Shown: positions 4,157 to 38,686, counted from the first letter of the stretch. The stretch is DNA of 64,000 bases from Calditrichia bacterium (GCA_963765585.1 CAVXXB010000008.1:405111-469110), one strand, 5' to 3'. Notes: a model not told the origin generated them from the sequence alone. A program made the numbers and translations.

Positions 4157-5090
4157 GGATAAATCCCGGGGCTATTGATCATATTTATGAATCTATGCAA
4201 ATGTCATCCCGAATTTATTTCGGGAATATTCTGCTGGCTATCGGCTGTCTGCTCTCGGCCAACAGCCAACGGCAAACGATTTAGGATAAATCCCGGGGCC
4301 ATTGATCATATTTATCAATCTATGCAAATGTCATCCCGATTTTATTTCGGGAATATTCTGCTGGCTATCGGCTGTCTGCTCTCGGCCAACAGCCAACGGC
4401 AAACTGATTTAGGATAAATCCCGGGGCCATTGATCATTTTTATCAATCTATGCAAATGTCATCCCGAATTTATTTCGGGATCTATGTATCGGCTATCGGC
4501 CACCGGCAAACGATTAGGATAAATCCCGGGCTATGATCATATTTATCAATCTATGCAAATGTCATCCCGGAATATTCTGCTGGCTATCGGCTGTCTGCTC
4601 TCGGCCAACAGCCAACGGCAAACTGATTTAGGATAAATCCCGGGGCCATTGATCATATTTATCAATCTATGCAAATTTCATCCCGATTTTATTTCGGGAA
4701 TATTCTGCTGGCTATCGGCTGTCTGCTCTCGGCCAACAGCCAACGGCAAACTGATTTAGGATAAATCCCGGGGCCAGTGATCATATTTATCAATCTATGC
4801 AAATTTCATCCCGATTTTATTTCGGGAATATTCTGCTGGCTATCGGCTGTCTGCTCTCGGCCAACAGCCAACGGCAAACTGATTAAGGATAAATCCCGGG
4901 GCCATTGATCATATTTATCAATCTATGCAAATTTCATCCCGATTTTATTTCGGGAATATTCTGCTGGCTATCGGCTGTCTGCTCTCGGCCAACAGCCAAC
5001 GGCAAACTGATTTAGGATAAATCCCGGGGCCATTGATCATATTTATCAATCTATGTATCGGCTATCCGCTGTCGGCCATCGGCCAACGGA
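4157..5090. repeat. Tandem array of a ~127-128-bp unit, 6 near-identical copies plus 2 truncated/degenerate copies
   Basis: Unit starts (ggataaatcccgggg) fall at 4157, 4285, 4412, 4517, 4631, 4759, 4887 and 5015. The copy at 4412 is truncated and the copy at 4517 has a 12-bp deletion. Each unit carries the hairpin tcatcccgattttatttcgggaat. The last degenerate copy runs into the stop codon of the transporter gene at 5091. Confidence 0.95.
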
Positions 5091-6413: not shown

Positions 6414-6567
6414 TTGTTTTCCTGACTGATACTTTTTTGACCAATAAGAAAAGTTAGAAGTTAGAGTTTATCATTGGCCACTCGCCTCTCGGCTCTCGCC
6501 CCAAGACATACAAAATGGAGCTGTATTCGAAACCAGTGCCGAGTACCAAGTTCCTAATTCCTAACTC

Positions 6568-10332: not shown

Positions 10333-12021
10333 TTAGTAGGATGGTAATATAAAGAACTCCTCCCCGGATATATTTTCTGGTTTCACCTGGCCCCAAATCT
10401 CAATTGTATTTTCATTAATACTTTTTATCACACTCCAGATTTTTCCTATTTTGACAACATCCCCGGTTTTCACACCCGTCAGGTTTTTCTGTGGTGATAT
10501 TGTTATCCTGGATACAAATTTGTTTTCATCATTGGAATATTCAATAATTTTTCCCTTGGCAGTATTCCTTTTATATTCATAATTAAAATCTGAATTTTCA
10601 GCTGCCCATTTTTCTGATATATTATAAATACTGTTTTGCTTAACATCAGGTGGAACACTTATATTTTTCGCTATTTCAATCGGACCATTTGCATTATTTT
10701 TAAACTGGTTTTTATGTATCATTGCGGCCGGAAAGTAAGAATATACAGAACGTACCGTAACCCCGGGTCCACCTGGATTGTCCATAATGATGTTGCCGGA
10801 TAGTTCCATATACGAATCCACACTTAATACACCTCCGCCCGGATTATATACGATTGTATTGCCGGTAATTTTTCCGCGGCCTTCCTTACTTAACCTAATA
10901 CCACCGGGTCCGCCACCTTCCGTATAGTTACCTGCAATAAAGTTATCCTGTATCAAGGGATGACTGGATCGCATGGCATAGATTCCGCCGCCATCATCAT
11001 CAGAACTATTCCCAAGAATAAAATTTTCGATGATATCGGGAAACGAAAAATACTCTACATAAATACCGCCGGCATCACTACGCCCCTGTGCCTTATTGTT
11101 CAGAATCAGGTTATTCTTTATAATCGGCCGGGCTTCGTACGCACACCCTATTGCAGCACCGTTGCTGCTGCGGGTACGTCCGGTATCATTAATACCGGAG
11201 TTATTCTCTAAAAACACATTGTTTTCTATTTTGACCCGCAAACCGTCAATCATGCGATTGTCAACAAACCTGGCTTCCGGACCACCCTTTACACGCACCC
11301 AACCATATACGGCAATTCCGGCACCCATACCGATACCGGTTTTGTTCTTATAAAAGATATTATTTCGAATCTCGGGTACAGCGTTAAACAAACAGGCGAT
11401 TCCGCCACCCTGGTTGCCTTCCTGGTGAATCCGGTTATAGTTAAAATTTTCCGGCGCCAGGGTCATATTATCCAAAATAATATTATTGCTGATTTCCGGC
11501 GAGGTATCATCACACAGAATGCCCGCGCCATGCCCCCGCACCCGGCCATTTGCAATAATAAATCCATCCAATATAGAGTGATCGGCAGCAATGATCACTC
11601 TGTTTTCACCCTTACCGCTCAGAAAAGTCCGGTATTGATAAATATCTCTTTGCCAATTGTCCTCTGAGAATCCACCATACAAATCTGTGTATTGTATCAT
11701 TTCCAGGCTGCCTGATTCGTAACGACCCTGTCCAACCAACACCGCAATACGATTTTTTTCAGATGAACCGGCAATCTGCGATAAGGCTTTTTTAACTGTC
11801 TGCCATGGTTGTTCGGGAGTCCCCTTACCATTTGTATCTGATCCCGATTTTACAGATACATACATTATAGATTGATATCGATCTGTATCGATTTTTTCAG
11901 TTTTAGGTCCCAGTTTATCGAGCCTGGATTGTAATTCCTCACCGGCAAGACAAGTGGTAAATAAAATGGCGATAATTATGATTGATTTTAAAATATGCAT
12001 AGATTCTCCACAGCTATTCAT
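10333..12021 (-). CDS. Secreted right-handed parallel beta-helix (PbH1) repeat protein, pectin-lyase-fold
   Basis: 562 aa with a signal peptide (likely true start at MHILKS...). Multiple NNI/NN(T/S)G beta-helix repeats. Confidence 0.65.
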   Translation of the reverse strand: MNSCGESMHILKSIIIIAILFTTCLAGEELQSRLDKLGPKTEKIDTDRYQSIMYVSVKSGSDTNGKGTPEQPWQTVKKALSQIAGSSEKNRIAVLVGQGRYESGSLEMIQYTDLYGGFSEDNWQRDIYQYRTFLSGKGENRVIIAADHSILDGFIIANGRVRGHGAGILCDDTSPEISNNIILDNMTLAPENFNYNRIHQEGNQGGGIACLFNAVPEIRNNIFYKNKTGIGMGAGIAVYGWVRVKGGPEARFVDNRMIDGLRVKIENNVFLENNSGINDTGRTRSSNGAAIGCAYEARPIIKNNLILNNKAQGRSDAGGIYVEYFSFPDIIENFILGNSSDDDGGGIYAMRSSHPLIQDNFIAGNYTEGGGPGGIRLSKEGRGKITGNTIVYNPGGGVLSVDSYMELSGNIIMDNPGGPGVTVRSVYSYFPAAMIHKNQFKNNANGPIEIAKNISVPPDVKQNSIYNISEKWAAENSDFNYEYKRNTAKGKIIEYSNDENKFVSRITISPQKNLTGVKTGDVVKIGKIWSVIKSINENTIEIWGQVKPENISGEEFFILPSY

Positions 12022-12192
12022 TGTGATATCTCCCGATTAACCGGGACCATACAAACAAGGTTCTTCTCCGGAAATATTTTCCGGAGAAAATTCATATAAA
12101 TTAATTTGTGAAACACATTATACCATAGCGCACACTTTTTCGCGGAGACGCGGATACGCAGAGTTTTACTCGGTACTCGCAGCTCTGTATTC

Positions 12193-12228
12193 ATCATAAA
12201 AAGAAGAGGAACGGTCTCAGACCGTTCC
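12193..12228 (-). terminator. Intrinsic terminator for the FG-GAP gene: perfect hairpin ggaacggtctcagaccgttcc followed by a T-run on the minus strand
   Basis: A 10-bp perfect stem lies 7 bp downstream of the stop at 12235. The minus strand reads hairpin then tcttcttttt. Confidence 0.7.
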
Positions 12229-12234
12229 CTACAA

Positions 12235-15072
12235 TTATTTAAAGCTAATTTTCACTTCGTTAAGTATAGGTGAATATGCGCCGTTATCGGTTGTAAAAAT
12301 GGCCTTGTATTGCAACCAGGTTGCATCAGACGGCAGATTGATAATTTTGCCCGGTTGGGTATAATACGTGTCCTTACCATCAGGCCCCATCCATTGGGCT
12401 TGATCCAACATTTCCACACTTTTTGCCGCACGTACCTGGAAATGTATTTTACTGCGATTTGGTGTTTCTGCCTGCCAGGCTATTTTTTCAGGAATTTTAC
12501 CTGCCAAATTATGAGCTGAAGATATATAACTGTATGCAAATTTTCTATTCTCAATATGTCCGATATCAATACCCACATCATAATGGACGCCCACACTGGG
12601 AATCTCATGGCGATTGTCTGCAGAAAAGCCCTTTTCGCTGCCCCAGTAAATAAGTGAATTAGTACTATGGTCACCAAATTTCCCAATCTCATCATAACTG
12701 CCATCATGACGATGACAAAAGAAAAACACATCCGTATATCCGTCCAGATTAAAATCACTTGCGATCGATCCCGTGGCACCATCCGTAGGTAATTTTATGC
12801 TATTTTCAAGCGAATATCCATCTTCACCTCCAAGCAGGATAGTTGAATGCCAGGATCTGCGGCCATTGCCTTTGTAAAAGGGGCATATTAAATCAAGCCA
12901 GTCATCTCCATTTACATCGGCGATGCACATTGTCTTGGCCATAACGCCGATTTTTGTGAGATGCTCCGGATCAAATGTGCCATCCGCATTCTGATAATAA
13001 ATCAACACATTTTTATCATGGGCAAAGACAATATCCAGGAGGCCATCTTTGTTCAAATCCGCCACTCCAGGCGTCCCGGCGCCATTGCTTTCAGAAATTC
13101 GGATTCGTTTATCTTCCTTGAATTCACGGGTACCGGTTCCATAATAGATGCTGGCATCACCCCATTTCCCCTGCTGACCAAATACGATATCCAGATGACC
13201 ATCCCGGTTGATATCGGCAATTGATGCAGCACGGGTCATCATTATTGGCAATGTTGTTCGATCTGTGATGGGCCAACCCTGCTCGCTGCCCCAATAAATA
13301 AACGAACCTGGAAGCGGATCCCCATTTTCTGATTTTTTTACAGGTGTGCCATTGGATATAAGCACATCCAGATAGCCATCACGATCCAGATCGGCCACTT
13401 CCACACCCAATCCGGAATATGACGGCAAACCACTCATTCGCCATGAATCAAAGTCATTATTCTGATTCCAATAGACAAACGCTTCATTGGCCAGCCGCGT
13501 AATTTCACCCCGGTTAAGTAATATGACATCCACCTGATTGTCATCGTCCAGATCGGCAAAAGCCTGTTCGTAGGATTCCCGACCCGGCAATTCGATCCGG
13601 TCATCGACATTATATTTTCCATTGGCATTTCCAAAATAGAGATAATTTGGATCATAGTCCCCGCGTGAATTTCCCATCATTGACGTAAAAACGATATCGA
13701 GATGTCCATCCCCATTCAGATCCGCAATCGCGTTACCCTGGGCTCCGTGCTCATAAAGAGGTGTGCGTTGGGTTTTAGTAAATCCATCGGGTGAATTCCA
13801 ATAGATAAATGATGGTACTTCATAAGAATAGTGTTCCTGGAAATTTGACACGACCAGGTCAACCCATCCATCGTTGTTCAGATCTGCCGCATTGGCGCCC
13901 CAGGCACCAATCGTCTGGATTGAAACACGATTTTCTTCCAGAAAGCCTTTTTCAGAACCATAATACAAATATGAATCAATTAAGCGATTCGCCAGCCTGG
14001 GATTCCCGGTAAGTGAATGCTGGTGATTGGTAAAGAACACATCCTGATGACCATCTTTATTAAAATCTGAGATTACGACATCTTTTGCCATATAGCTTGT
14101 AAATGATATAGACCTATCCGTCAAAAATCCGTCGGCACTATTTAAATATGCAAGTGATGTGGTTCCTTCCTGATTTGCAAAAACCACATCTTTTAAACCG
14201 TCACCATTAATATCATCGCAAGCGACTGCATGGGCCTTTTTTGTCGGTAATTTTGCCATTTCTTTTTCATCGAATCCGGATTCGGAGCCATAATAGATAT
14301 AAGATTCCGCCCCATCCCCATTGGCAAAAACCAGATCCGGCCAGTCATCGCCATTCAACTCATCGATCAAAACATCAGTGGCACCTACCGTCAGGACATT
14401 TGTAAATTTTTCCGGATCAAAGCCACTCTTTGCCCCCCAGTAAATCCTGCTGGGGGAAGAACCTTCACGATTTTTATCGCGATATTCCCAGAACCCGCCG
14501 GAGAATGCAAATACAATATCCTGAAAACCATCCTTGTTCAAATCGCCGATGGCTGCTTTTTGCGTATTGGATCCGGGAAGTTCAACACGCTCTGCAAAAG
14601 GATAAAAGCCCCATTTGTCAGGCGATGATTTAAAATCCGGATCTTTCAATCCACCGTAATATATAAAAGACGGCATCTCCGTCCAGGTGCCATTTGAATA
14701 ATTTGCTACAACTAAATCCTGATTACCATCCTGGTTCAGATCGCCAGGTGTCACCCACATGGGGCCGTTGGCCGGCACATAATTGTGATTCTTAATACTA
14801 AAATCTTTGCCGTTTCCCCAATAAATGGACAGATCAAGCATCTCGATCAGAGGATGCGAATTGGCACACAGGATATCGATATAGCCATCGTCATTGACGT
14901 CCCAGCGATTGATCATCTGTACCCGGCCGTTATGGGATACATACGTATTGGCGCCGGCATCATCAAACGTGCCGTCTGCAAAATCGGTAAATGTTTTTTC
15001 AATCCACACATCCTGGCTAAACAGTGATATACAACTGAATAGAAAGATTACCAATATCAAAAATGTTTTCAT
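12235..15072 (-). CDS. Secreted FG-GAP/VCBS repeat beta-propeller protein (945 aa)
   Basis: Signal peptide present. There are more than 10 repeats of D(L/I)NxDGxxD(I/L)V calcium-binding FG-GAP motifs. Confidence 0.7.
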   Translation of the reverse strand: MKTFLILVIFLFSCISLFSQDVWIEKTFTDFADGTFDDAGANTYVSHNGRVQMINRWDVNDDGYIDILCANSHPLIEMLDLSIYWGNGKDFSIKNHNYVPANGPMWVTPGDLNQDGNQDLVVANYSNGTWTEMPSFIYYGGLKDPDFKSSPDKWGFYPFAERVELPGSNTQKAAIGDLNKDGFQDIVFAFSGGFWEYRDKNREGSSPSRIYWGAKSGFDPEKFTNVLTVGATDVLIDELNGDDWPDLVFANGDGAESYIYYGSESGFDEKEMAKLPTKKAHAVACDDINGDGLKDVVFANQEGTTSLAYLNSADGFLTDRSISFTSYMAKDVVISDFNKDGHQDVFFTNHQHSLTGNPRLANRLIDSYLYYGSEKGFLEENRVSIQTIGAWGANAADLNNDGWVDLVVSNFQEHYSYEVPSFIYWNSPDGFTKTQRTPLYEHGAQGNAIADLNGDGHLDIVFTSMMGNSRGDYDPNYLYFGNANGKYNVDDRIELPGRESYEQAFADLDDDNQVDVILLNRGEITRLANEAFVYWNQNNDFDSWRMSGLPSYSGLGVEVADLDRDGYLDVLISNGTPVKKSENGDPLPGSFIYWGSEQGWPITDRTTLPIMMTRAASIADINRDGHLDIVFGQQGKWGDASIYYGTGTREFKEDKRIRISESNGAGTPGVADLNKDGLLDIVFAHDKNVLIYYQNADGTFDPEHLTKIGVMAKTMCIADVNGDDWLDLICPFYKGNGRRSWHSTILLGGEDGYSLENSIKLPTDGATGSIASDFNLDGYTDVFFFCHRHDGSYDEIGKFGDHSTNSLIYWGSEKGFSADNRHEIPSVGVHYDVGIDIGHIENRKFAYSYISSAHNLAGKIPEKIAWQAETPNRSKIHFQVRAAKSVEMLDQAQWMGPDGKDTYYTQPGKIINLPSDATWLQYKAIFTTDNGAYSPILNEVKISFK

Positions 15073-15335
15073 CTTATGTCCATTTTTTTCCTGATTGCCT
15101 TCATTTATAGAACGCTGAGTACGCTGAATACCGCGGAATATTTAAGAACAGAGTGTAAGCAATTTAAATTCTGAACCGGGTTCAGAATGACCTTATTGTC
15201 TTCCCGTATTTGGTTCGGGATCTAAATGGAGATATATTTTTTAAACTGTTATTTGGTAGTTATAAACGAACTCACAATAAATCTCTCATCTCTAATTTAT
15301 TAAAATCCGCCTTACTCTGAATAATCTGCGTTAAA

Positions 15336-16136
15336 TTACAGATCACGCTCATATAACAACATGAGAGTATTTGACATTTGGATACGTATTTCCCTGTATT
15401 TCTCATTATCTGCCTGACTCTCTGTAAGTTTGATTTCACGCGTCAGGTAGTTGATCAGTTCCTCTTTTGATCGTTGTGCATAATAACTATCAGGGAACCG
15501 ATCCATATAATCCTTAAATAGAATAAATCCCAGAGGCCATAATTGTTCAAAGTTACCCCATTTCTCAGATATTCTCTGATCTATAACCTGTAGAATACTT
15601 TTATTTGCTTCAAATGATCTGGTTTCAGAACTTTTATGTGCCATAAACTGATACTCAAAAAAAAGTTCATTCATAGCAATTAATTCTGATTCGGTGTTAC
15701 CAGTACCCAGTTCCGAGTAATAGTAACGCACAGAATCCAGCCAGGTCTGAATTTCAAATTTCGATAGTTTCTCCACATCCAGCTTATAATTTATGGGTAT
15801 GTTAAGCCAGAACTTCTCCACCTTGCCATTTACTGTGCCGGGTTCAAATTTTGCCGTCTTAATCATATCAAGTGCCGATTGATCCAATAATTGTGATCCG
15901 GATGATCGGTATATATCTGCCAGCGCTACATTACCCTGTTCATCAATCATTACTTTTAACTGTACTGATCCGGATATATTATATTCATAGGCCTCCCTGG
16001 GATACTCAAATGCGATATGTGTGGAAAGTAATTTTGGGTAAACTATCCCCGATTTGTTCTGTTTTTGTGGATGACATCCTAACAGAAAACAAAATAAAAA
16101 TAATAACAGATATTTTGACGCAATGTGTCTTATCAT
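15336..16136 (-). CDS. Lipoprotein with a TonB C-terminal-like domain
   Basis: 266 aa with a signal peptide and lipobox (LLGCHPQ). The segment YPREAYEYNISGSVQLKVMIDEQGNV...SSGSQLLDQSALDMIKTAKFEP matches the TonB_C fold signature. Confidence 0.55.
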   Translation of the reverse strand: MIRHIASKYLLLFLFCFLLGCHPQKQNKSGIVYPKLLSTHIAFEYPREAYEYNISGSVQLKVMIDEQGNVALADIYRSSGSQLLDQSALDMIKTAKFEPGTVNGKVEKFWLNIPINYKLDVEKLSKFEIQTWLDSVRYYYSELGTGNTESELIAMNELFFEYQFMAHKSSETRSFEANKSILQVIDQRISEKWGNFEQLWPLGFILFKDYMDRFPDSYYAQRSKEELINYLTREIKLTESQADNEKYREIRIQMSNTLMLLYERDL

Positions 16137-16164
16137 ATAAATCTGTTTTGAAACGACTAAATCG

Positions 16165-17424
16165 TCATTTCTGTGAAGTTGATAATTTTACTGAAACCGG
16201 ATTATCCAGCTTTAATATCTCTAATTCCAGATATTTACGGAACTGTTCTTCGGTTGTTATGCCGCCCGGCTCCTGTCCCCAGGCCGCCAGGAAATAATAC
16301 GTCATATTTTCCTGTTCTGGTTTCAGAATTACTATGTGACTCTGACCATCATCGGCTCTTTCAATTAAATTCGATTTTTTATATAAAACCGCCATACCGA
16401 GTAAATCCTGTTCATTGACAAGCGTTTGCGCGCCAAAGGTAGCCAGATATTGCCATTCACTATCTCCGGATGATTCTAATAAATCCGCCATTTCATGCTT
16501 TACCAACCCGGTACAGATGTTTTCAGCTCCACCTTTTATAGTGATATCGTGTCTGGTTTTACGGTCACCGGCCGCAATCGATAATTTTGATTGTAAATCA
16601 TATTTTTTGTCCGCCACCTGCCAGCCATAATAATCCGTCTGTATCCGTGAATATACCGGACCATTTGCTACAATCGCGCAGGTAATGCTATCTGTCACTG
16701 ATACCATTTTAACTTCGCTATCATTCCACATACCAATGGATCCGATTCCGAGTGTTGATCCTACCTTCAGTACATCCACTCCCCAATCGGCCATTTCATG
16801 GTATGAATCAAATCCGTCCTGTCCTACGTTTTGTAACACCATTTCGCTGGTCTTTTTGCCGAAGATATCTGTTGCATTGCGCCAGTCCAGATAGAATCGA
16901 TAACCAACCTTATCAGACTCCCAACCGGGACCCTCATAGCGAAAATAGGTATCATGATCTGTATGGACATCCGGAACCCGTACATAGGAAACATTTTCGA
17001 ATTTCCCGCCGATATATTTTTTATCTTCAAATTTTCCACCAACTTTATGGGATAATTCCGCCTGTGTTCTCTTTGTGTATGGTTTTTCAATCGCCACACC
17101 GGGTGTCGAAATTATTAATAATTCTCGTTCTTCATTTGGTTGAAGATCTGTTACCAGTACCAGCATATCATTCTGACCATCCTGATTCCGGTCATCCAAC
17201 TGACAAGGGACTGCATCTTCCCCATGATATACCATTAATGCCCTCTCATTAAATTCGCTGTTACCGGCTTTTAGATCGGCTACAGGTAGTTCAATTAACA
17301 CATCCTTTAGTGGTTGATCCAGATTATTTTTCACCTTCAAATCATATTTAATTGGTCCGCTGCAGGAACTCAATACAACAATAATAATTAGCGACAGAAA
17401 AATTTTCATTTTATAGACCTCCAA
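16165..17424 (-). CDS. Hypothetical lipoprotein (possibly DUF4861-type, associated with hexuronate/pectin loci)
   Basis: 419 aa with a signal peptide and LSSCSG lipobox. No catalytic motifs recognised. The family assignment rests on weak recollection only. Confidence 0.4.
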   Translation of the reverse strand: MEVYKMKIFLSLIIIVVLSSCSGPIKYDLKVKNNLDQPLKDVLIELPVADLKAGNSEFNERALMVYHGEDAVPCQLDDRNQDGQNDMLVLVTDLQPNEERELLIISTPGVAIEKPYTKRTQAELSHKVGGKFEDKKYIGGKFENVSYVRVPDVHTDHDTYFRYEGPGWESDKVGYRFYLDWRNATDIFGKKTSEMVLQNVGQDGFDSYHEMADWGVDVLKVGSTLGIGSIGMWNDSEVKMVSVTDSITCAIVANGPVYSRIQTDYYGWQVADKKYDLQSKLSIAAGDRKTRHDITIKGGAENICTGLVKHEMADLLESSGDSEWQYLATFGAQTLVNEQDLLGMAVLYKKSNLIERADDGQSHIVILKPEQENMTYYFLAAWGQEPGGITTEEQFRKYLELEILKLDNPVSVKLSTSQK

Positions 17425-17678
17425 TGGTTATAATAAATACTACCACAATAATTGTTTCTTGATACACGAATATATATCCGATTATTTTTTACTGCAATTT
17501 TTTTATATTCATTATATGTCCTGGCCTAATGTTTACAAATTTTTAACCGGCAAGTGCGCAGAGAATGACGGAAATAGGTACGGACGAAATCAATAATTAT
17601 TATTCGTTTGTTAACACATAGCCAAGACAATACAAATTATAATATTGCGAGATAAAGCAGATTGGATATAAAATTTCC

Positions 17679-17698
17679 GGAACGGTCTGAGACCGTTC
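17679..17698 (-). terminator. Second copy of the hairpin ggaacggtctgagaccgttc, downstream of the Ldh_2 gene
   Basis: Same stem sequence as at 12208..12228. It lies ~60 nt downstream of the stop at 17759. Confidence 0.5.
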
Positions 17699-17758
17699 AC
17701 TACCAATACATTTGAATATCTAACCTCTAACCAAATTTTCGATACCACAAAATAAAAA

Positions 17759-18760
17759 TTAAACCATTTCCAAAATCTCTTGCCAGTAGTCATAATCAAC
17801 CGGGATTCCATTTTTTAAATTTTCTTTTCTTCTGATCAATGTCTGTTCGCCGGGATAATATATATTTGCACCTTGATGTATTTTATCAGAAGACCGATTG
17901 TACTCTAAAATATTATCAATTATTGCATCCGAATCTATTACACCGGGCTTGGAAGCATCGATGGCGATAAATATCTGTGATAATCCATATTCGTGATCAC
18001 GTTTTCCGATTTGATGCACCGCATCCCCCTCTGACAAAATTGCTGCAATAATATCGAGCATCATAGATAAACCGGACCCTTTCCAAAAGCCGATGGGCAA
18101 AAGACGTTCCGTCTGCTCAATTTCGCCAGGATCACGGCTTAGATTTCCATTGTGATCATACCCGCCATCCATGGGTAAGGATTCATTATTCCGCCGGAAT
18201 GATTCCAGTTTGCCGTAAGAAAACAACGACAATGCCATATCCAAAACAATATGTCCTTCAGATCGTGGTACGGCCATCACAAATGGGTTATTTCCCAATT
18301 TAGCCTCAGTAGCACCCCAGGGCGGTAAATTTGGTTTCGTATTTGTCCAACAGATTCCGATGCAGTTAGCATCTGCTGCCTGCCAGCCGTAGGATCCACC
18401 GCGTAGCCAGTGATTGGTATTGCGCAAAGCAACACACCCTAAACCCTGTGTTTTTGCGATCTCAATTGCTCTTTGCATGCAGGCGTAGGCATTCAGATTC
18501 CCTGGACCAAGACTGCCGTCCCAGTTTTCAACAGTTCCATTTTTCTTCCGGCATTTTGCCAGTGCATCCGGTTTAATATATCCGCGTTGTATGCCGCGAA
18601 TATATGCAGGGAATCTGTTTATGCCATGGGAGGCAAATCCATCCAGATTGGTCTCTGTGAATAACCGGGCTGATAAATCTGCCCGCTTATCACTAAAATT
18701 ATACTTGATTAGAATCTGTTTTAGAGTTTGGTGAAGATCTTTGTATGGAATACGTTGCAT
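17759..18760 (-). CDS. yiaK: Ldh_2-family dehydrogenase, YiaK-like 3-dehydro-L-gulonate 2-dehydrogenase / 2,3-diketo-L-gulonate reductase
   Basis: Blocks NRFP, ALRNTNHWLRGGSYGWQAA, IGICWTN, PWGA..LGNNP, FSYGKLE and GFWKGSG match my recollection of E. coli YiaK. The ORF track starts at 18838, but the first 26 codons are read from the repeat element, so the true start is likely the M of MQRIPYKDL (~18760). Confidence 0.8.
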   Translation of the reverse strand: MQRIPYKDLHQTLKQILIKYNFSDKRADLSARLFTETNLDGFASHGINRFPAYIRGIQRGYIKPDALAKCRKKNGTVENWDGSLGPGNLNAYACMQRAIEIAKTQGLGCVALRNTNHWLRGGSYGWQAADANCIGICWTNTKPNLPPWGATEAKLGNNPFVMAVPRSEGHIVLDMALSLFSYGKLESFRRNNESLPMDGGYDHNGNLSRDPGEIEQTERLLPIGFWKGSGLSMMLDIIAAILSEGDAVHQIGKRDHEYGLSQIFIAIDASKPGVIDSDAIIDNILEYNRSSDKIHQGANIYYPGEQTLIRRKENLKNGIPVDYDYWQEILEMV

Positions 18761-18774
18761 ATTTTTCTCGCTTC

Positions 18775-19052
18775 TGGATACAAGATACAGGATACAGTAT
18801 TCAGGATACAAGATGCTGGATGCTACTTTCATTGTCATCTCGAAGAGATCTTTCCGGATTGCTGGTGCCCTTTTCGACGGGAAGATTCCTTCGGAATGAC
18901 ATAAGAATTACTTAGTACCCTGGATATAGTATCCTGCATATTGCTTCGGCTATAAGGTCCTTTCAGGAAGACAATTCGGTGCCACCTCTATACTGAAGCC
19001 TGGCGCCTGAAACCTGGGGCCTGTATCTTGCATCCAGCATCCAGTATCTGCT
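18775..19052. repeat. MITE-like dispersed element, copy A
   Basis: The low-complexity arm caagatacaggatacag... at 18781 pairs with the inverted arm ...ctgtatcttgcatccagcatccagtatctg at 19021..19050. The core tgtcatctcgaagagatctttccggattgctggtgc...gaagattccttcggaatgacataagaatta is near-identical to 21796..21880. Confidence 0.8.
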
Positions 19053-19056
19053 CTTC

Positions 19057-20478
19057 TCACAGTTTATAATTCTTCTTTGCCAGATTGTATGATAAATCAA
19101 CGATGATTTCTTTTGCTTCATCCATATCCAACACCCCGTCCAGTACCAGTTCGGCCAGATATCGTGAATCAATGCGCCGTGCAAGGTCATGGCGGGCCGG
19201 GATTGATGGAAAAGCACGTGTATCATCAATAAAACCCACCGTATTATAAAAACCTGCGGTTTCGGTTACATGGCGCCTGAAGCGTAACATTCCCTCGCGA
19301 CTGTCATGGAACCACCACGATGGCCCCAATCTCAATGCCGGATAATGTCCGGCCAGGGGTGCCAGTTCGCGGGAATAAGTGGACTCATCAAGGGTGAACA
19401 AAATTAATGTCAGATTTTTGTCATTACCAAATTTATCTAACAGCGGTTTTAGATTATGTACATAATCTGTGGTTACCGGAATATCACATCCTTTGTCCGC
19501 ACCAAATTTCTTAAAAATGTCCGGATTATAATTTCGGTATGATCCCGGATGGATTTGCATGGTCATGCCGTCTTCCGTGGCCATTCGGGCCATTTCCATC
19601 AACATATGTCCGGTAAAGATGGTCGCATCCTCATCCGTTGCTTTTCCCGCCAGTCCTTTTTGAAATAATTTTTCTGCTTCGTCTGCGCTAATTTTTATGG
19701 TAAAGGGTGAATTCACGCCGTGATCGGTTGAAGTACAACCCATGGACTTGAAAAATGCACGCTGGTTTTCCAAGGCGGTGATAAACTGAGTGTAGTCCTT
19801 ACAATCCATATCGGATAAGAGGCTCAACCGGTCAATTTGGGTCTTCCAGTCCGGAAATAACATATTTGTCACATTATCCGGCCGGAATGCCGGAACAATC
19901 TTACCATCCCAGTCGCTTTCCTTAATTGTTTTATGATGAACCAGCGTATCGGTGGGTGAATCTGTCGTACTCAATACCTCGATATTAAAACGATCAAACA
20001 TAGCGCGTGGATAGTTTTCCGGTTTTTGTAATGCAACTTCTATCTGATCATAAATATCCATCGCTGTGTCAGAATTCAATTGCTGTTTTATATCAAATAC
20101 ATCATGTAGTTCATGTTTGAGCCACATTCCGGTGGGTGTACCCCGGAAAAGATAAAAATTATCAGCAAAAATTTGCCAAATCTTTTTATGATCGGCTTCT
20201 GTTTTTCCGCCATCAGCCCTGGGAACACCAAGCGCCTCCAGATCAATTCCCTGGGAATAGAGCATCCGGAACACATAATGATCCGGAATAATTAATAATT
20301 CTGCCGGATCGGGAAATGGTGTATTTTCAGCAAATATTTTTGGATCCACATGTCCGTGGGGACAGATCAATGGTAGATCCTTAACTATTTCATATAATTC
20401 ACGGGCTATTTTGCGTTCTTCGGTGTTGGCACCAAGGTAACGATCTCCATTGAGTTTCAACTGTTTTTCTCCGGACAT
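19057..20478 (-). CDS. uxaC: Glucuronate isomerase (uronate isomerase)
   Basis: 473 aa. Full-length similarity to UxaC: ICPHGHVDP at the N-terminal metal site, and the C-terminal LGPSWWFHDSREGMLRFRRHV...GFIDDTRAFPSIPARHDLARR matching E. coli FGSGWWFNDQKDGMERQ...[20 protein letters not shown]. Confidence 0.9.
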   Translation of the reverse strand: MSGEKQLKLNGDRYLGANTEERKIARELYEIVKDLPLICPHGHVDPKIFAENTPFPDPAELLIIPDHYVFRMLYSQGIDLEALGVPRADGGKTEADHKKIWQIFADNFYLFRGTPTGMWLKHELHDVFDIKQQLNSDTAMDIYDQIEVALQKPENYPRAMFDRFNIEVLSTTDSPTDTLVHHKTIKESDWDGKIVPAFRPDNVTNMLFPDWKTQIDRLSLLSDMDCKDYTQFITALENQRAFFKSMGCTSTDHGVNSPFTIKISADEAEKLFQKGLAGKATDEDATIFTGHMLMEMARMATEDGMTMQIHPGSYRNYNPDIFKKFGADKGCDIPVTTDYVHNLKPLLDKFGNDKNLTLILFTLDESTYSRELAPLAGHYPALRLGPSWWFHDSREGMLRFRRHVTETAGFYNTVGFIDDTRAFPSIPARHDLARRIDSRYLAELVLDGVLDMDEAKEIIVDLSYNLAKKNYKL

Positions 20479-20492
20479 ACAAACTCCTTTTT

Positions 20493-20923
20493 ATAGAACA
20501 CGGATTACACTGATTACTCGAAGTATCAATAAGCGTTCCCGAGAATATCTCGGGAACGAGATATCTATGATTACGGATTAAATGTAGTAATTTAATGATC
20601 TCACATGAGTAATTCATGCAATTTACCACAAAGACTCAAAGACACGAAGAAAAAGAATTAAAAATTTATAATTGAAATACAATCACCGTGTTTTATAATT
20701 ATAACTCTTTCTGCTAATCCATTATTTTTTATAACTTTGTATCTTTGTTACTTTGTGACTTTGTGTTTATGAATAATTCAGGCTAATTATTTTAATAAAA
20801 TATATTGAATATAAGTATAGTATGTATAAATATTTTTAATTTCGATCTAAAATGCATAAATCTATAAAAATTATTTTTTAAATTCCGCGTTAATCCGTGT
20901 GATCCGCGTAATCCGTGTTCTAT
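20493..20923. mobile_element. 431-bp intergenic element bounded by 16-bp perfect terminal inverted repeats (atagaacacggattac / gtaatccgtgttctat)
   Basis: The TIRs at 20493..20508 and 20908..20923 sit right next to the uxaC start and the methyltransferase start. The interior has a perfect palindrome gttcccgagaatatctcgggaac (20535..20557), direct 9-10-bp words CACGGATTA/CACTGATTA, and a very AT-rich centre. Confidence 0.5.
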
Positions 20924-20944
20924 CAAATAATTAACGGGAGCAAT

Positions 20945-21694
20945 ATGAATAACGATTTTATCTTTGAGTTTTTTGAAAAAATGCCCAGACAAGGCCCTGG
21001 ATCAGAAAAATATACGTTACAAGCATTGGAGAAAATCAAGCATAGATTGCCGGTTACCCCTAATATACTGGATATCGGGTGTGGCAATGGTACACAAACA
21101 TTTGATCTGTTACAGGCGCTTCCTTCGGCCAATATAACCGCAATTGATATTCACCCACCATTTCTTGACATGGTCAAAGAGAAATGTTGTAAGATACTAC
21201 AGCCCCCGGCAAAAGTTCATGCACAGGCAATGTCCATGGCAGAAATCGACTTTGATCCGGGCACATTTGATCTCATCTGGTCGGAGGGCGCGATATACAA
21301 TGTCGGTTTTGAAAGAGGAATACAACTTTGGCAGGATTTACTAAAACCCGATGGATATATGGTGGTATCCGAAGCCGTCTGGCTAAAACCGGATTTGCCT
21401 GCGCCGGTGAGAGATTTTTGGGAATCAGAATATCCCGAGATCGGCACTATCGCGGATAAATTTTCAATCATTGAAAAATCCGGCTTAGAAACAGTTCATC
21501 ATTTTACGCTTCCCAAATCAGTGTGGCAGGATGAGTTTTATGTTCCCATGCAGGAATTAATCAATCATTTTCGTAAATCGCAAAAGAGTAACGTGATGAA
21601 TGAATTCCTTGACGGCATGCAGATTGAGATAGATATGTTCAAATCTTACGGAGAGTATTATTCGTATGAATTTTTTGTGATGGGGAAAAGATAG
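20945..21694 (+). CDS. Class I SAM-dependent methyltransferase
   Basis: The glycine-rich SAM motif I (LDIGCGNGTQT) and an acidic motif II (AIDIHPP) are present. The ORF track starts at 20915, but that ATG lies inside the right TIR, so the ATG at 20945 (MNNDFIFEFF) is more likely. Confidence 0.75.
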   Translation: MNNDFIFEFFEKMPRQGPGSEKYTLQALEKIKHRLPVTPNILDIGCGNGTQTFDLLQALPSANITAIDIHPPFLDMVKEKCCKILQPPAKVHAQAMSMAEIDFDPGTFDLIWSEGAIYNVGFERGIQLWQDLLKPDGYMVVSEAVWLKPDLPAPVRDFWESEYPEIGTIADKFSIIEKSGLETVHHFTLPKSVWQDEFYVPMQELINHFRKSQKSNVMNEFLDGMQIEIDMFKSYGEYYSYEFFVMGKR

Positions 21695-21919
21695 ATGCTT
21701 GATACTGGATGCAGGATACAGGATTCAGGATGCTGGATACTGGATGCTTGATGATGTGAATTCGATAAAATCGCACTCTATGTCATTCTGCATTCTGCCT
21801 GCCCCTGTCATCTCGCAGAGATCCTCCCGGATTGCTGGTGCACAATGCGACGAGAAGATTCCTTCGGAATGACACAAGAATTAATCAGTAACTTATTCTC
21901 GTATCCAGTATCCAGAATC
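21695..21919. repeat. MITE-like dispersed element, copy B
   Basis: Arms gatgcttgatactggatgcaggatacagg... and ...gtatccagtatccagaatc flank the core tgtcatctcgcagagatcctcccggattgctggtgc...gaagattccttcggaatgacacaagaatta, which matches copy A at 18828..18910. Confidence 0.8.
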
Positions 21920-21961
21920 ATATTGGGAACTTATTTTACGAGGAATTGTACAAACCGGCTT

Positions 21962-22003
21962 AAAAAAGAAAAACCCATCCGGGGCATGAACCGGACGGGT
22001 TTT
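21962..22003 (-). terminator. Intrinsic terminator of the TPR gene
   Basis: Hairpin aaacccatccggggcatgaaccggacgggttt at 21971..22003. On the minus strand it is followed by tttttctttttt. Confidence 0.65.
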
Positions 22004-22130
22004 CCAGACGTTAGGCTACACAAGGTGTGTAGACTTTGGAAGGCAAACTAATTTAACAATAAATTCAGTAAAAGTATTCCCTTTTCTGAATTTTTTTTAT
22101 TTTTTTTGTATTTGGGAAAATAATTAGAAC

Positions 22131-23429
22131 TTAATTATTTTCTCTATATGGCTTTTGACTTTTATATAAGTCAATTCGCGGCTCTATTTCTTGTGCCATT
22201 TGTTTGTCCCGGTTTTTTATCGCCAGTGAATGTGCTCTCTCTGCCAGTTGTCTCGCTTTGTCATATTCCTTATTCTCGGCAAAGCCCATCGCCAGAAGAT
22301 CCAGACATGTTGCCGTTTCCTGCTCATTATCCTCACAAATTAAAACAGCCAGTCGTAATGCTTCTTTTCCATTGCGAATTTTCGATTCAGGTGCGCTGGC
22401 ATATATTCTCGCGAGTTGATATGCAAATCGACGATCATTAGGTGCAATTTCCATACCCTTTTTAAAATAATTTATGGCGTCCGCTCTCTGACCCTGTCGT
22501 TTTGAAAAGGTTCCGATATTCAGATACGCATCCGTGGATTTGCTATCTATTTCCAGACTTTTCATTATTGTCATTTTTGCCTTTTCTATATCACCCAGTT
22601 CAAAATAGATGACTGCCAGATTGTTAATCGCGGCGAAATGTACCGGATTAATATCCAGAGCTTCCTTGTAATGATCCATGGCGGCTTCATAGCGTTTTTG
22701 TCGCTGATACACATAACCTAAACTGGTATGAGATGCTTCATTGGGTTTTGCTTCCAACGCTTTTTTGAACTCTTCTTCGGCCTTATTCAGATTGCCCTGA
22801 TTCAAAAAGTTATTTCCCCTAACCTGACACCAGAACGAACTCACCGCTTCGTTGACCATTTCGTAGTAGACCGGGTCTTTTAAGTCAAGTCGTTCGGGAA
22901 GCTTTACCATTTTATTAAATACAAGTTCGGCCTTTTCCTTTTCACCTTTTCTACGGTAAATATCTGCGAGTAGCGCTTGTGCCTCTCTGTAACCGGGCGC
23001 CATCTGCACGGCTTTACTTATTTGAGATTCCGCAGCATCTAAATCACTCTGTTCCATAGCCACTTTTGCCAAACCCAGATACGCATGTGGCACCCTGGAA
23101 TTCGAATATAGAACTCCCTGATAGCAAGCTTTGGCTTCCTTTAAACGACCAGATAAAAGATAGCGATTACCCAGTTTTATATTTAAGGGTGGATAAGAAG
23201 AATCCAGTTGTTTTGCTTTTTCATACCAGATAAGCGCATCATCTGAATTGAGCTCATCCAGTGCAATCGCACAAAAATAAGGCCAGCGGAAATGTTCGGG
23301 GTCAAGAGAATTTGCTTTTTCAAAACACGGCACAGAAGGTTCTATATAATCATGAATTAACAATGTCATGCCCAATTTACCCCAGTTTTCACTTTTATCC
23401 GGTTCAGATTCGGCCTGCGACACCAGCAT
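22131..23429 (-). CDS. Tetratricopeptide (TPR) repeat protein
   Basis: 432 aa with at least 8 TPR-like 34-aa repeats (AxxxYxxAxxxDP pattern). Confidence 0.8.
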   Translation of the reverse strand: MLVSQAESEPDKSENWGKLGMTLLIHDYIEPSVPCFEKANSLDPEHFRWPYFCAIALDELNSDDALIWYEKAKQLDSSYPPLNIKLGNRYLLSGRLKEAKACYQGVLYSNSRVPHAYLGLAKVAMEQSDLDAAESQISKAVQMAPGYREAQALLADIYRRKGEKEKAELVFNKMVKLPERLDLKDPVYYEMVNEAVSSFWCQVRGNNFLNQGNLNKAEEEFKKALEAKPNEASHTSLGYVYQRQKRYEAAMDHYKEALDINPVHFAAINNLAVIYFELGDIEKAKMTIMKSLEIDSKSTDAYLNIGTFSKRQGQRADAINYFKKGMEIAPNDRRFAYQLARIYASAPESKIRNGKEALRLAVLICEDNEQETATCLDLLAMGFAENKEYDKARQLAERAHSLAIKNRDKQMAQEIEPRIDLYKSQKPYRENN

Positions 23430-23925
23430 ATTGACTTTGCTAACGATTTGCTTCTCTGTGCCTGCAAAAGCAATTGCTCTGATATTTTCAAGAATTTCTT
23501 TATTCGTACTATAATCGATGTACCAAATAATTGAAAAATAAGATGAACGTACATACGATTAATAAAAGAATAACATAGAGATAATTTTTAGTTTTCATTC
23601 CATCACCTGATATTTGAGAGTAGTATAAAATAGAGACAGGTCATCTCGCAGAAACCCTCCCGTGATGCAGGCACTGCGTTAGAACAAGAAAATGTTACCC
23701 GAACGACGGAAAGATCCCTGAAGGGATGACAAATTAATATCAATGTCCAATGCCCAAGTCCGAATGTCAAATGAATGCCCAAAATAAAATGCCAAATTAT
23801 AAAAGTAATTCACAATCATTGGACATTGAAAATTGATTTGGCATTTGGATTTTGACATTTGGCATTCTTATTTAAAACTTTGTGATCTTCGTGGTGAATT
23901 ATAGTACTCATAATAATTTCACCAC

Positions 23926-25623
23926 TCAATCGGCTACATCTTGTCCTTGCCCTTTTTTAAGGGTAATTATCTGATTGGGTGAAATATTCTTAAATATTTC
24001 AGTATCTCCACCTGGCCAAATGACGCGTACTTCATCGATGCTGTCGATGTTGCCAAGTCCAAAATGCGCCCGCGGATCATTTGAGGCGCAAAAACTATAG
24101 CCGGGATTTACCAGACGCAGGAAACTTTTTTCTCCCGAATGGACTATGACTTTTGCACCATACATATCCCTTTTCAAGTTGGGATCGATGGCCCTGACTA
24201 TTAACCAGTTACCATTTTTCTCATGATCATTGCGATACAGGCGGGCTCTTCCGCCTTCATTTGATACCAGCAAATCAACATCCCCATCGTTGTCAATATC
24301 GCCAAATACCAGCGCCCGGCTATTTTCAACCCGTGACGTAAATGGCAATGCCTGGTCACTCACATCGGTGAAACGGTCATTGCCATCGTTATTAAAAATC
24401 AGATTTGGTTCGGCATAATGATCCCAGTATTGAAGAGGATCTCTGTCCGTATAAATTTTTCCTCGAATAACTCTTCCGTTCACAATGGCAAGATCCAGAT
24501 CGCCATCGAGATCATAATCAAAGAATCCGGTACCAAAGCCGGTAAACGGCAGGCTGACTGCCGACAATGCGACTGGATTGGTCTCATCCTGAAATCCGAT
24601 ATCACCGGCATTGCGTAAAAAAGTGTTTGTTTCCCCCTGAAAATGTGTCATAAATAAATCAAGATCAAGATCGTTATCCACATCACCCAGTGTTACGCCC
24701 ATACTCGCTTCGGCCATTCCCATGCCATTTATTGCCATTCCCTGCATAAGTGCGTCATCACGAAACGTCCCATCCTTTTGATTGATCCACAGATGATTGT
24801 ATTTCCGGTCATTCGAGATATAGATATCGGGATAAAAATCATCATTAAAATCGGCACTTATAATTCCCAGGCCGGCGGATGGTTTGGCAGCAATGCCCGA
24901 TTCGACAGAGACATCTTTAAAGGTACCGTCACCATTATTTTTAAATAACCGGTCCGCGTATCCCGGGAATCCCTGTGGACCACAATAATCCGGGGCTCCT
25001 AAACGATCGACGCATACTACTGCTGTATCGTAATCCACATAATTTGCCACACAAATATCCAGGAATGAGTCTAAATTATAGTCGACGAAGGTAACGGAAA
25101 TCCCCCAATCGGGATTATGAATACCTGATGCCTGTGTTATATCACTAAAAGTACCATTTCCATTATTCAAATAAAGTGCATCCGGACCATCATTGGAAAT
25201 GTAAACATCCAGATCGCCATCATTATCAATATCCCCAATGGCCACTCCCATGCCATATCCTTGATCCCCCAGGCCGGAAATGCTGGTAACATCCGTGAAT
25301 GTACCATTGTCTTCCTGCCGGTAGAGCCTGTTTCTTATCGGTTCGTTATTGGTTTGTGTCTTTTCATGAATTGCGCCGTTGAGTAAATAAATATCCAGAT
25401 CATCATCGTTATCATAATCAAAAAACGCCGCACCGGATCCGATACTTTCCGGCATGTAATATTTACCATCAATTGCCGGGTCATGCACAAAATCAAGATT
25501 TACCTGGTCGGTAATTTCAGTTAGAAAGGAATTACTCTTTTGCCCCGTATCATTGCTGCACCCACAAAAAAACAAAAGCACATATGCAGGTATAACAAAC
25601 ATTGTAATCCTAAAATTTACCAT
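23926..25623 (-). CDS. FG-GAP repeat + ASPIC/UnbV C-terminal domain lipoprotein (CRTAC1-like)
   Basis: 565 aa. Lipobox FFCGCSN, D(x)DxDGDLD FG-GAP repeats, and the C-terminal ASPIC motif ...GYSFCASNDPRAHFGLGNIDSIDEVRVIWPGG. Confidence 0.8.
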   Translation of the reverse strand: MVNFRITMFVIPAYVLLFFCGCSNDTGQKSNSFLTEITDQVNLDFVHDPAIDGKYYMPESIGSGAAFFDYDNDDDLDIYLLNGAIHEKTQTNNEPIRNRLYRQEDNGTFTDVTSISGLGDQGYGMGVAIGDIDNDGDLDVYISNDGPDALYLNNGNGTFSDITQASGIHNPDWGISVTFVDYNLDSFLDICVANYVDYDTAVVCVDRLGAPDYCGPQGFPGYADRLFKNNGDGTFKDVSVESGIAAKPSAGLGIISADFNDDFYPDIYISNDRKYNHLWINQKDGTFRDDALMQGMAINGMGMAEASMGVTLGDVDNDLDLDLFMTHFQGETNTFLRNAGDIGFQDETNPVALSAVSLPFTGFGTGFFDYDLDGDLDLAIVNGRVIRGKIYTDRDPLQYWDHYAEPNLIFNNDGNDRFTDVSDQALPFTSRVENSRALVFGDIDNDGDVDLLVSNEGGRARLYRNDHEKNGNWLIVRAIDPNLKRDMYGAKVIVHSGEKSFLRLVNPGYSFCASNDPRAHFGLGNIDSIDEVRVIWPGGDTEIFKNISPNQIITLKKGQGQDVAD

Positions 25624-26096
25624 TAACGTCCTGTTCTAATAGTATTATGGCGTTAATCCGGCCTGCCGCGTTTCACACGGGTCATCCCCGTTCTATTTCT
25701 TTGATGTTGATATCCTATGATACTATTTATTATTATGCAATATTACTGGTAGACGAATATTATATTTCACCCCTAAAGGGGTTTTCAATGTTTTTGGGAA
25801 CTCCATTTACTACAAATATAGAACCGCTACGCGGTTCTTTGTATATCCTCGATATCATAGTCCCGTCAGGGATTATATATTTCTATCCATTTTTGATAGA
25901 GCATAGTAAAAATCCCTTAGAGTTAATATATTATAAGTAATTTGTAATTGGTAATTTTAATGAACCAATAGCCAACTCCAGGTTCTGAATAACCAATAAC
26001 CAATTCCAAGTTACAAGTTACGAGTTACAAATTCCTAATCCCTCATCTCTAATCTATTTCACCTGTGCATTTACATGAGAGACAATTTCCCCCTTA

Positions 26097-29627: not shown

Positions 29628-30011
29628 TACCGCATGAGATAAGAAATATTAGTAAGATGAAAAAATATGCCAGCCGAATAGCAGAATTATTATTAGAAAT
29701 ACATTTATAAAGATGGTTTATCATATACTCGTTTTCCCACCAACAAAATCAGTGATAATTTCTTTATACAAAAAGTCTGATAATTTACCAAAAAATAATA
29801 GAATAGTTTGAACCCTGAATTTAATCAGGGTCTCTCGCATAGACCCAAAGACCCGAGACAAGATGATTAGGTAAGTTAGAATGAGAAGTTAGAAATTGTA
29901 ATGGTAATTATTGCACATCGCCAATTACAAATTCTTAATTCCAAATCGTTTCATCTGCGCCTCTGCGACTCTGCGTGAAATAATTGTAAACAAATATGGA
30001 TGTTTACGCCC

Positions 30012-31652: not shown

Positions 31653-31959
31653 ATTTAAACTCCTGAGATCTAATTTGAATTGAGCCCCACTACCCTATTA
31701 TTAACTCACGCAGAGGCGCAGAGACGCTGAGAAAAAGAATATTGAATAGAAATTAGAGATTTGCGATTGGCAATATTTACAAATTACCAGTTCCTAATTC
31801 CGAGTTCCAAATTCTCCATTTTTGAGCAGGAGATTCTTCGTCCGCCAGACGGCGGACTCAGAATGACACCTAATATAATAACGAATTACCAATAGCAAAT
31901 TACTATCCTCATTTCTAACTTCTAACTATTTTTACTGCCTCTCTGCGAGTGAACATTGC

Positions 31960-35542: not shown

Positions 35543-35585
35543 TCTTGTTATCCTAAGTTTAGTAATACGTCAAAATAATAATTTA

Positions 35586-35733
35586 GACAGGATAACAGGA
35601 TTATTGAAGATGGTTAACTACTTGTGTATTATGCTGGTGACCCTATATGGACTCAAACTAAGTTTAGGAACCCAATTGTGTTCCCAAGTTCAACCTGGGA
35701 ACAAGGATTTCCTGTAAATCCTGTTATCCTGTC
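35586..35733. repeat. Structured intergenic element: 17-bp perfect inverted repeat gacaggataacaggatt / aatcctgttatcctgtc enclosing ~114 bp with internal palindromes
   Basis: Read directly. The inner palindromes are gttcccaagttcaacctgggaac and ggaacccaattgtgttcc. It lies in the 236-bp gap between two minus-strand genes. Confidence 0.6.
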
Positions 35734-35778
35734 AAAAAAAACAAAATAGTCTGCTTGTCAAACAATGACCGTAATTTA

Positions 35779-38479: not shown

Positions 38480-38686
38480 AAATATTCTCGGTTAATTCAC
38501 ATTCAGAGAGAAAGGAAATTGGGAATTAGGACTTGGGAACTTGTGATTGTGCTTTGTTATTGATTATATTAAAAACAAATAAATATCACCCAGCACCAAT
38601 GCCAAATAACTAATTACAAGTTACTAATTCCCAGTTCCAAGTTTCAAATCTCTAATCTCTCATTCCTCATTTCTAATCTCTAACTT

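Follow-up and report, generated by a model that had tools for sequence, protein, structure and literature searches.

The DNA analysed here, a 64,000-nt stretch of a Calditrichia bacterium genome (GCA_963765585.1, CAVXXB010000008.1:405111-469110; hereafter the window), contains three copies of a short intergenic repeat that is made of two inverted palindromic units. Two of these copies, A and B, bracket the glucuronate isomerase gene uxaC and a methyltransferase gene, and a more diverged copy, C, lies in the next intergenic region. With moderate confidence, we interpret A, B and C as local paralogues of a family of non-autonomous palindromic doublets, 67-107 nt long, that sit in or beside hairpins of tandemly repeated short words. 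The doublets resemble REPINs, which are doublets of repetitive extragenic palindromes (REPs) that form a hairpin (we use the definition of PMC3116915 for comparison), while the word hairpins resemble the short tandemly repeated repetitive (STRR) sequences of cyanobacteria. We describe the doublet as working like a REPIN, not as a proven member of that family. As a repeat it is of an ordinary kind, joining intergenic palindromes of the REP and miniature inverted-repeat transposable element (MITE) class to STRR-like arrays, in an unusual lineage and with a tidy anatomy.

Copies A and B share a core in equal orientation (18833-18917 and 21806-21890, an offset of 2973 nt) that is 87% identical over 85 nt, with a longest exact shared run of 21 nt. 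For the 21-mer GAAGATTCCTTCGGAATGACA we count exactly two occurrences in the window with 0.01 expected, and for the 15-mer CCGGATTGCTGGTGC again exactly two, with 0.11 expected. A preliminary description of this DNA had already recognised the shared core and its orientation, and both hold. Neither copy contains an open reading frame (ORF) or encodes anything. The likeness could be thought a chance resemblance of low-complexity spacers, as the arms around both cores are arrays of low-complexity words, alike in whichever 7-nt register they are compared. However, the core itself is not of low complexity, and the counts of the two exact words, together with the recurrence of the two-part element in other organisms, refute this explanation.

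The core doublet of A and B measures 67-69 nt and consists of two inverted units of about 22 nt, each with its own 5-bp mini-hairpin. Its plan is (T)GTCAT-YYY-GNA-RRR-ATC-YTCC, followed by a variable spacer and an inverse unit ending in ATGACA. Twelve distinct units, drawn from the window and other organisms, have 93% of their stem cells paired and double (compensatory) changes at three of the five stem pairs, a level reached by none of 500 shuffles and by no slid register. The stem variants include TCC/GGA, CTC/GAG, CCT/AGG, TCT/AGA and CCC/GGG. Little or no variation affects GTCAT and the loop positions G and A, and all 12 units carry the head (T)GTCAT. The two units within one doublet usually have different stems, yet each retains its hairpin, which indicates that the local hairpin is conserved and not only a long one spanning the doublet. 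Copy A can also form one long hairpin from either strand (-29.6 kcal/mol, z -3.5), and core folding shows no consistent strand preference; of the two structures, the mini-hairpin of each unit is the better supported. The apex reads C-GNA-G, and the 3' unit has the literal CCGAAGG. Mini-hairpin DNA with the motif GCGNAGC or CCGAAGG is markedly to exceptionally stable as DNA, less so as RNA, and is present in single-strand initiation signals (PMC13037366); the match argues for a hairpin that may form in single-stranded DNA. Rfam gave no match at the gathering threshold in the whole window, and a permissive search of 18600-24000 returned only sub-threshold, hairpin-like noise, including a long-hairpin-like match at 23740-23868. 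The features of the region are listed in Table 1.

Table 1. Repeat units, word arrays and genes around the three doublets, in window coordinates.
Feature	Position	Strand	Details
Ldh_2 / YiaK-like dehydrogenase gene	17759..18760	-	Start corrected to 18760, not 18838
Copy A, left arm	18776..18823		Seven tandem GGATRCW heptamers, located 15 nt before the corrected start codon of Ldh_2; Tandem Repeats Finder (TRF) period 7 (18776-18814)
Copy A, core doublet	18833..18901	+	5' unit TGTCATCTCGAAGAGATCTTTCC, 27-nt spacer, 3' unit GGAAGATTCCTTCGGAATGACA; covariance-model scores 35.5 + 38.8 bits
Copy A, conserved 3' tail	18902..18910	+	TAAGAATTA; counterpart CAAGAATTA in B and TAAGAATTT in metagenome locus L014 (flank comparison)
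Copy A, degenerate third unit	18949..18976	-	TTGTCTTCCTGAAAGGACC, in the extra ~90 nt of A; covariance-model score 14.6 bits, E 0.06, outside the training set
Copy A, right arm	18993..19049		Eight heptamers (CTGNNNC) in inverse orientation to the left arm; the array ends 8 nt short of the uxaC stop codon; TRF 18993-19023, 19030-19048
uxaC, glucuronate isomerase	19057..20478	-	Pfam PF02614, homologues
uxaC-methyltransferase intergenic region	20489..20927		Inverted 9-mer arrays (ACACGGATT / TCCGCGTAA) adjoining both start codons; inner 8-mer arrays
S-adenosylmethionine-dependent methyltransferase	20945..21694	+	249 aa from ATG at 20945; Pfam; divergent from uxaC in all relatives examined
Copy B, left arm	21694..21753		About 8.6 GATGCTG/GGATACW heptamers, from the methyltransferase stop codon; TRF period 7
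Degenerate 5' unit in left spacer of B	21781..21799	+	TGT[CATTCTG][CATTCTG]CC, 7-nt tandem duplication; TRF row 21784-21798
Copy B, core doublet	21806..21874	+	Covariance-model scores 37.1 + 32.3 bits; tail CAAGAATTA at 21875-21883
Copy B, right arm	21901..21919		GTATCCA x 2.7, inverted to the left arm; TRF period 7
Copy C, diverged core doublet	23639..23731	+	52-nt spacer; covariance-model scores 29.0 + 29.6 bits; in the next intergenic region
Inverted ATGCCAA/TTGGCAT word arrays	23743..23868		Beside copy C, not around it; TRF 23836-23866

Single-unit remnants adjoin both A and B. The additional material before the right arm of A, put at about 100 bp in the preliminary description, amounts to about 90 nt (18902-18992). 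In copy C, the stem of the 3' unit is compensated (ATCCC/GGGAT). The window contains six strong units, which make up the three doublets and all lie inside 5 kb; A, B and C occupy three of four consecutive spacers while the other 23 spacers have no copy. By our own arithmetic, such clustering is found in 73 of 2925 possible triples (p ~0.025) and is mildly non-random. As spacer sequence is common to A, B and partly C, it would appear that the copies arose by local copying.

Longer-looped relatives of the unit exist as singlets, in the forms GTCATTGCGAG...GCAATC and GTCACCCTGAGCG...GGGTG, at window positions 31832, 43373 and 58815 and in a tandem array at 4157-5089; they are also found in relatives. 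The array, between SDR and Nramp genes, comprises about seven tandem copies of a 127/128-nt unit that holds a CCCGGGGATAAATCCCGGGG hairpin, a ATTGATCA...TATCAAT hairpin, the GTCAT-type unit TGTCATCCCGAATTTATTTCGGGA and six GCYNNCN heptamer words, and is an amplified module of a unit plus a word array. At 43373-43420 (minus strand), each stem half of a GTCAT unit is tandemly duplicated (ATCCTGAA twice and TTCAGGAT twice).

We searched a metagenome collection of 241 million records for the exact 21-mer and recovered 10 loci (L014-L023), about seven of them distinct. Every complete locus has a 5' partner unit, for which the query did not select, located 27-90 nt upstream and inverted, and the spacers are unrelated. 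The terminal inverted repeats span 27-37 nt and are 78-83% complementary, and element lengths fall into two groups, of 67-69 nt and 106-107 nt. A covariance model built from the units (R1) identified copies beyond this search set, namely a second doublet in L023, a single unit in L019 and a unit downstream of uxaC in the relative L012; two doublets were found on one 6.8-kb contig. All copies in the window and in L014-L023 are intergenic, in both orientations relative to the flanking genes, and their neighbours are unrelated housekeeping genes: the copies lie between pgk and tpiA, upstream of secA, between OEP and HlyD genes and upstream of ctaA. An operator of a hexuronate regulon was considered and rejected, since other copies adjoin pgk/tpiA, secA, efflux and ctaA genes. 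No element match was found in plasmids and phages (BLAST) or in viral contigs (scan). Scanning a genome collection for the degenerate 5' pattern GTCATCTCGNAGANANCNTNCCG gave 11 matches in unrelated bacteria, none of which extends past the pattern, as expected of chance. A literature search on motif strings such as GTCATTGCGAG returned only primer-type noise, and one on KSB1 and repeats returned nothing relevant.

Copies A and B had previously been called MITE-like. This label fits insofar as the element is small, non-coding, dispersed and bounded by terminal inverted repeats; it does not fit the lack of a target-site duplication or the finding that the arms are no part of the core. We consider it unlikely that the family is a classical MITE, that is, an internally deleted insertion sequence with TG...CA ends that a DDE transposase moves by cut-and-paste. 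The terminal inverted repeats, of 22-37 nt, do start with TGT and finish with ACA, and the small size, missing coding capacity and dispersed intergenic copies are as such an element would have them. Against this, six of eight doublets have no flanking direct repeat of at least 3 nt, and the other two have only 3- and 4-nt A/T-rich matches at differing offsets, without a consistent length. None of the 10 loci with the 21-mer contains a long, transposase-bearing version, so that no parent element is seen among them. Moreover, a covarying mini-hairpin marks each end, a feature for which DDE ends have no need; single units often stand in isolation, and plasmids, phages and viral contigs yielded no match.

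The preliminary description had also noted inverted low-complexity arms around both copies, and these are present, the right arm of A being longer than then stated. Paired segments in copy A are 18767-18805 and 19006-19044, and also 18805-18823 and 19030-19048; the whole element including its arms folds at -97.7 kcal/mol (z -4.4). In copy B, the segment 21903-21919 has two partners, 21729-21745 and 21694-21710. The window has 14 GGATRCW double words, where 0.5 are expected, and all of them lie within the four arms of A and B. Still, the word arms are a separate feature and not part of the core: in other organisms no word arms surround the core, the arrays at copy C are beside it and not around it, and arrays occupy most spacers that have no core. 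In L024/L025, where the core is missing, a GGATRCW array likewise stands upstream of Ldh_2 at the orthologous position.

Word arrays are widespread in the window. Thirty-two of the 36 TRF arrays of period 7-9 are intergenic, though intergenic DNA makes up 14.6% of the window (P = 6 × 10−23), and 16 of the 27 spacers of at least 100 nt contain at least one array. The density of arrays of period 7-8 is about nine times that of 81 kb of unrelated control loci. Array-bearing spacers fold better relative to shuffles (mean z -2.9) than array-free ones (-0.7; p 0.0015), with the sense strand folding better than the antisense strand in 7 of 12 array-bearing spacers (p 0.12). The usual layout is of nested inverted pairs set directly against the stop codon of a gene and the start region of the gene after it. 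Most spacers are built in this way from 7-9-nt words, as at 6414-6567, 12022-12234, 15073-15335, 25624-26096, 29628-30011, 31653-31959, 35543-35778, 38480-38686, 42256-42441 and 43261-43453. These spacers share a vocabulary, with CGCAGAG/CTCTGCG outermost and GTTAGAA, GGAATTG, AATAACC and others inside, and their arrays adjoin stop and start codons.

Turnover of the doublets is seen at the pgk-tpiA spacer. In four relatives whose triose-phosphate isomerases (TIM) are 84-91% identical, this spacer always opens with one and the same CGCAGAG-type word array after the pgk stop codon. Its interior holds the doublet described here in L014, a GTCACCCTGAGCG-type doublet in L027, other GTCAY hairpins in L028 and none in L029, as would be expected from a mobile or rapidly replaced element. 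(On the 1.25-Mb contig L029, tpiA-secG is followed at 11632-19286 by a phage-integrase fragment, an IS110-family transposase, a HicB-like antitoxin and an RVT_1 reverse transcriptase, a mobile-element island unrelated to the doublets.) We propose that the units could fold as very stable mini-hairpins in single-stranded DNA through their CCGAAGG or CGNAG apex, and that a hairpin-specific enzyme acting in trans, probably a transposase of the Y1/HUH type, would copy them into intergenic DNA without target-site duplication. Doublets would afterwards decay to single units, and settled copies would be transcribed inside operons as stem-loops. Mobility, the hairpin at the DNA level and the type of enzyme are what we infer here; the family with its anatomy and covarying stems, its dispersed intergenic distribution, the lack of target-site duplication, the kept gene order and the separateness of arms and core are shown.

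Several observations weigh against this REPIN-like interpretation. The 21-mer is rare (10 among the 241 million records), which makes the family either low-copy or very diverse. The TIM homologues of L014 gave no clean pair of a filled and an empty site, as their spacers are too diverged for boundaries to be drawn, and mobility is argued from turnover. A tblastn search of 178 kb with approximate queries for the IS608 TnpA and the E. coli REP-associated tyrosine transposase (RAYT) found no RAYT or Y1 transposase, and no transposase Pfam domain was present among the 29 window genes scanned. REPs that are bound and cleaved by a RAYT, as in E. coli and Stenotrophomonas, have a GTAG-type tetranucleotide head, not GTCAT. 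Finally, the window shares with L012, L013 and L024/L025 a GTCAT-type unit that closely follows uxaC and is identically oriented in all of them, which could reflect conservation of a functional hairpin in place rather than insertion.

This last observation leads to the main rival of the REPIN-like interpretation, in which the doublets would be cis-acting structural elements that evolve in place without movement. Their hairpins, transcribed within operons or at 3' ends, would stabilise or process mRNA or couple translation over long spacers, and selection on folding would maintain doublets and word arrays alike. We regard this as a realistic possibility, albeit not the probable one. The recurrent unit after the uxaC stop codon is in sense orientation, elements lie within operons such as pgk-tpiA and OEP-HlyD, array-bearing spacers fold far better than shuffles, and word arrays abut stop and start codons at positions that are constant in relatives. 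For the STRR hairpins of cyanobacteria, too, transcript stabilisation or translational coupling has been suggested as a role (PMC2670836). Conversely, one 22-nt unit sequence, including its conserved flanks outside the stem (GTCAT, ATCYTCC), recurs in different organisms, in the gaps of unrelated gene pairs and both with and against the direction of transcription. Orthologous spacers hold different family members or none, and the sense strand does not fold significantly better than the antisense strand. The C-G-closed G-N-A triloop favours DNA hairpins, and no Rfam family matches.

A broader and more doubtful idea would unite GTCAT doublets and inverted arrays of 7-9-nt words as two stages of a single, so far undescribed system of intergenic repeats in KSB1/Calditrichota-like bacteria. 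The duplicated unit at 43373-43420 and the CATTCTG-duplicated unit at 21781-21799 resemble transitional forms that link a simple hairpin unit to an inverted word array. Units might then spread without a classical RAYT, their half-stems expanding by slippage through such intermediates into mirrored arrays. The arrays might persist at stop and start codons and there loop out the spacer in mRNA. If the idea of a single system were true, one process would build and turn over most of the intergenic DNA of these genomes.

The position of A and B on either side of uxaC and the methyltransferase had suggested a composite-element-like unit whose segment recombination could delete or duplicate, but comparison with relatives contradicts this reading. 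The order of a TPR gene, the methyltransferase (opposite strand), uxaC and Ldh_2 is kept in L013, where uxaC is 87% identical, and in L024/L025, which belong to the same 90%-identity cluster as L013. L026 (uxaC 74%) keeps the order methyltransferase, uxaC, Ldh_2, further genes and DUF4861. The methyltransferase thus adjoins uxaC in relatives, and core A or B was found in none of these four loci: the uxaC-Ldh_2 spacer of L026 measures 37 nt, while L013 and L024 have other GTCAT hairpins and other word arrays at the positions of A and B. Since gene order is kept where the copies are missing, the segment is ancestral chromosome and not cargo brought by the repeats. That A and B are the ends of a transposon-like unit that carried in both genes, or that readily deletes or duplicates them, is therefore very improbable, even though two same-orientation copies 2973 nt apart bracket the genes and the methyltransferase is the only clearly plus-strand gene of the window. 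No transposase was found in the window genes scanned or in the 178 kb searched by tblastn, and identical runs of at most 21 nt within 85 nt of similarity are a poor substrate for homologous recombination. With copy C and so many array-bearing spacers nearby, bracketing is expected from position alone.

The nearest named homologues of uxaC are from candidate division KSB1 (69-73% identity), and the host is probably a KSB1-lineage bacterium. The first 26 codons of the longest Ldh_2 ORF had been suspected to be read out of copy A and not translated. This holds true of the 26 codons, which come from the arm and core. In the 359-aa ORF that starts at 18838, Pfam places the Ldh_2 domain from residue 30 onwards, and the homologues in L013 and L026 begin with MKRVPF/MRISF, aligned with the MQRIPY encoded from 18760.

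Between uxaC and the methyltransferase, a same-sense 9-mer array ending in GTAATCCGTGTTCTAT stands directly upstream of both divergent start codons (20489-20525 and 20884-20927) and may be a shared operator or 5'-UTR (untranslated region) element of the pair. AATCCGYG-type word arrays related to those of this intergenic region are kept in L013 and occur upstream of uxaC in L012. The 5' leader of uxaC also contains a perfect 11-bp GC-rich hairpin without a T-run (CGTTCCCGAGATATTCTCGGGAACG; 20534-20558, minus strand); a leader structure is one possibility, a palindrome bound by a protein another. Next to copy B, 21955-22060 (minus strand) contains a candidate conserved small RNA. A stretch of about 60 nt within it, CCTTCCAAAGTCTACACACCTTGTGTAGCCTAACGTCTGGAAAACC, shows no difference (100% identity) between the window, L012, L013 and L024, whose surrounding spacers are unalignable. 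The candidate has a 7-bp hairpin followed by a stem and T-run terminator, with one-sided stem changes; it matches no Rfam family and is always located upstream of uxaC and in uxaC sense. Elsewhere in the window, a minus-strand gene run (39822-47037) encodes, by domain-level matches only, a di-haem CCP/MauG-like protein, a cytochrome c554-like protein fused to a beta-propeller, an FG-GAP/ASPIC protein and a protein with the hydrazine-synthase alpha middle domain PF18582.

For annotation, these results remove a false 26-codon extension from the Ldh_2/YiaK-like gene and caution against labelling the uxaC-methyltransferase segment as mobile. They also add a doublet family of REPIN-like build, distinguished by its GTCAT head and by an apex of the DNA mini-hairpin type; we found no earlier publication that describes this family from its uncultured lineage. 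STRR-like heptamer hairpin arrays, known in cyanobacteria, fill most intergenic regions here and in close relatives as well. Should the complete genome contain a cognate enzyme, the known range of REPIN-type systems would be wider; should it contain none, this would hint at a new route by which such repeats spread.

Known repeats include the REP-like intergenic palindrome aAACCGTTgaAACGGTTt of Caldithrix abyssi, from a neighbouring phylum (PMC5317091), but this is a single 18-nt palindrome that is unrelated in sequence and build to the GTCAT hairpin doublet. MITEs such as Correia, Nezha and miniature elements derived from insertion sequences are likewise short, non-coding, intergenic and dispersed, with terminal inverted repeats. 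The doublet differs from them in having no target-site duplication and no known parent insertion sequence, and in that each end is a covarying mini-hairpin. For the arms alone, the comparison is with the STRRs of heterocystous cyanobacteria, tandem 7-bp repeats that can form hairpins between genes of one operon (hupS-hupL) and for which roles in transcript stability and translational coupling were proposed (PMC2670836). Both consist of tandem 7-nt words in intergenic positions that form hairpins between genes. However, the arms described here are from another phylum and use other words (GGATRCW, CGCAGAG, GTTAGAA and others, as opposed to CCCCAGT and its relatives). They also combine periods of 7, 8 and 9, mostly as nested inverted pairs abutting stop or start codons, and their words turn over between close relatives while their position is kept.

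REPINs remain the nearest counterpart of the doublet itself. The differences are the GTCAT head in place of GTAG, a stem of only 5 bp with a G-N-A triloop, unrelated spacers between loci, and an uncultured host, probably of the KSB1 lineage, with no RAYT in the 178 kb searched. Copies here are few and diverged (three in 64 kb, with a 21-mer that is rare in metagenomes), whereas the REPINs of Pseudomonas are near-identical and number in the hundreds. Nevertheless, both are built of two inverted short palindromic units with conserved heads pointing outward and a less conserved spacer, and the whole can form a hairpin in single-stranded DNA or mRNA. Both are strictly extragenic and non-coding, have no target-site duplication, occur in clustered copies and are accompanied by decayed singlets. 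Their sizes agree as well, with classes of about 70 and 107 nt here and REPIN spacings of 71 and 110 bp in P. fluorescens SBW25.

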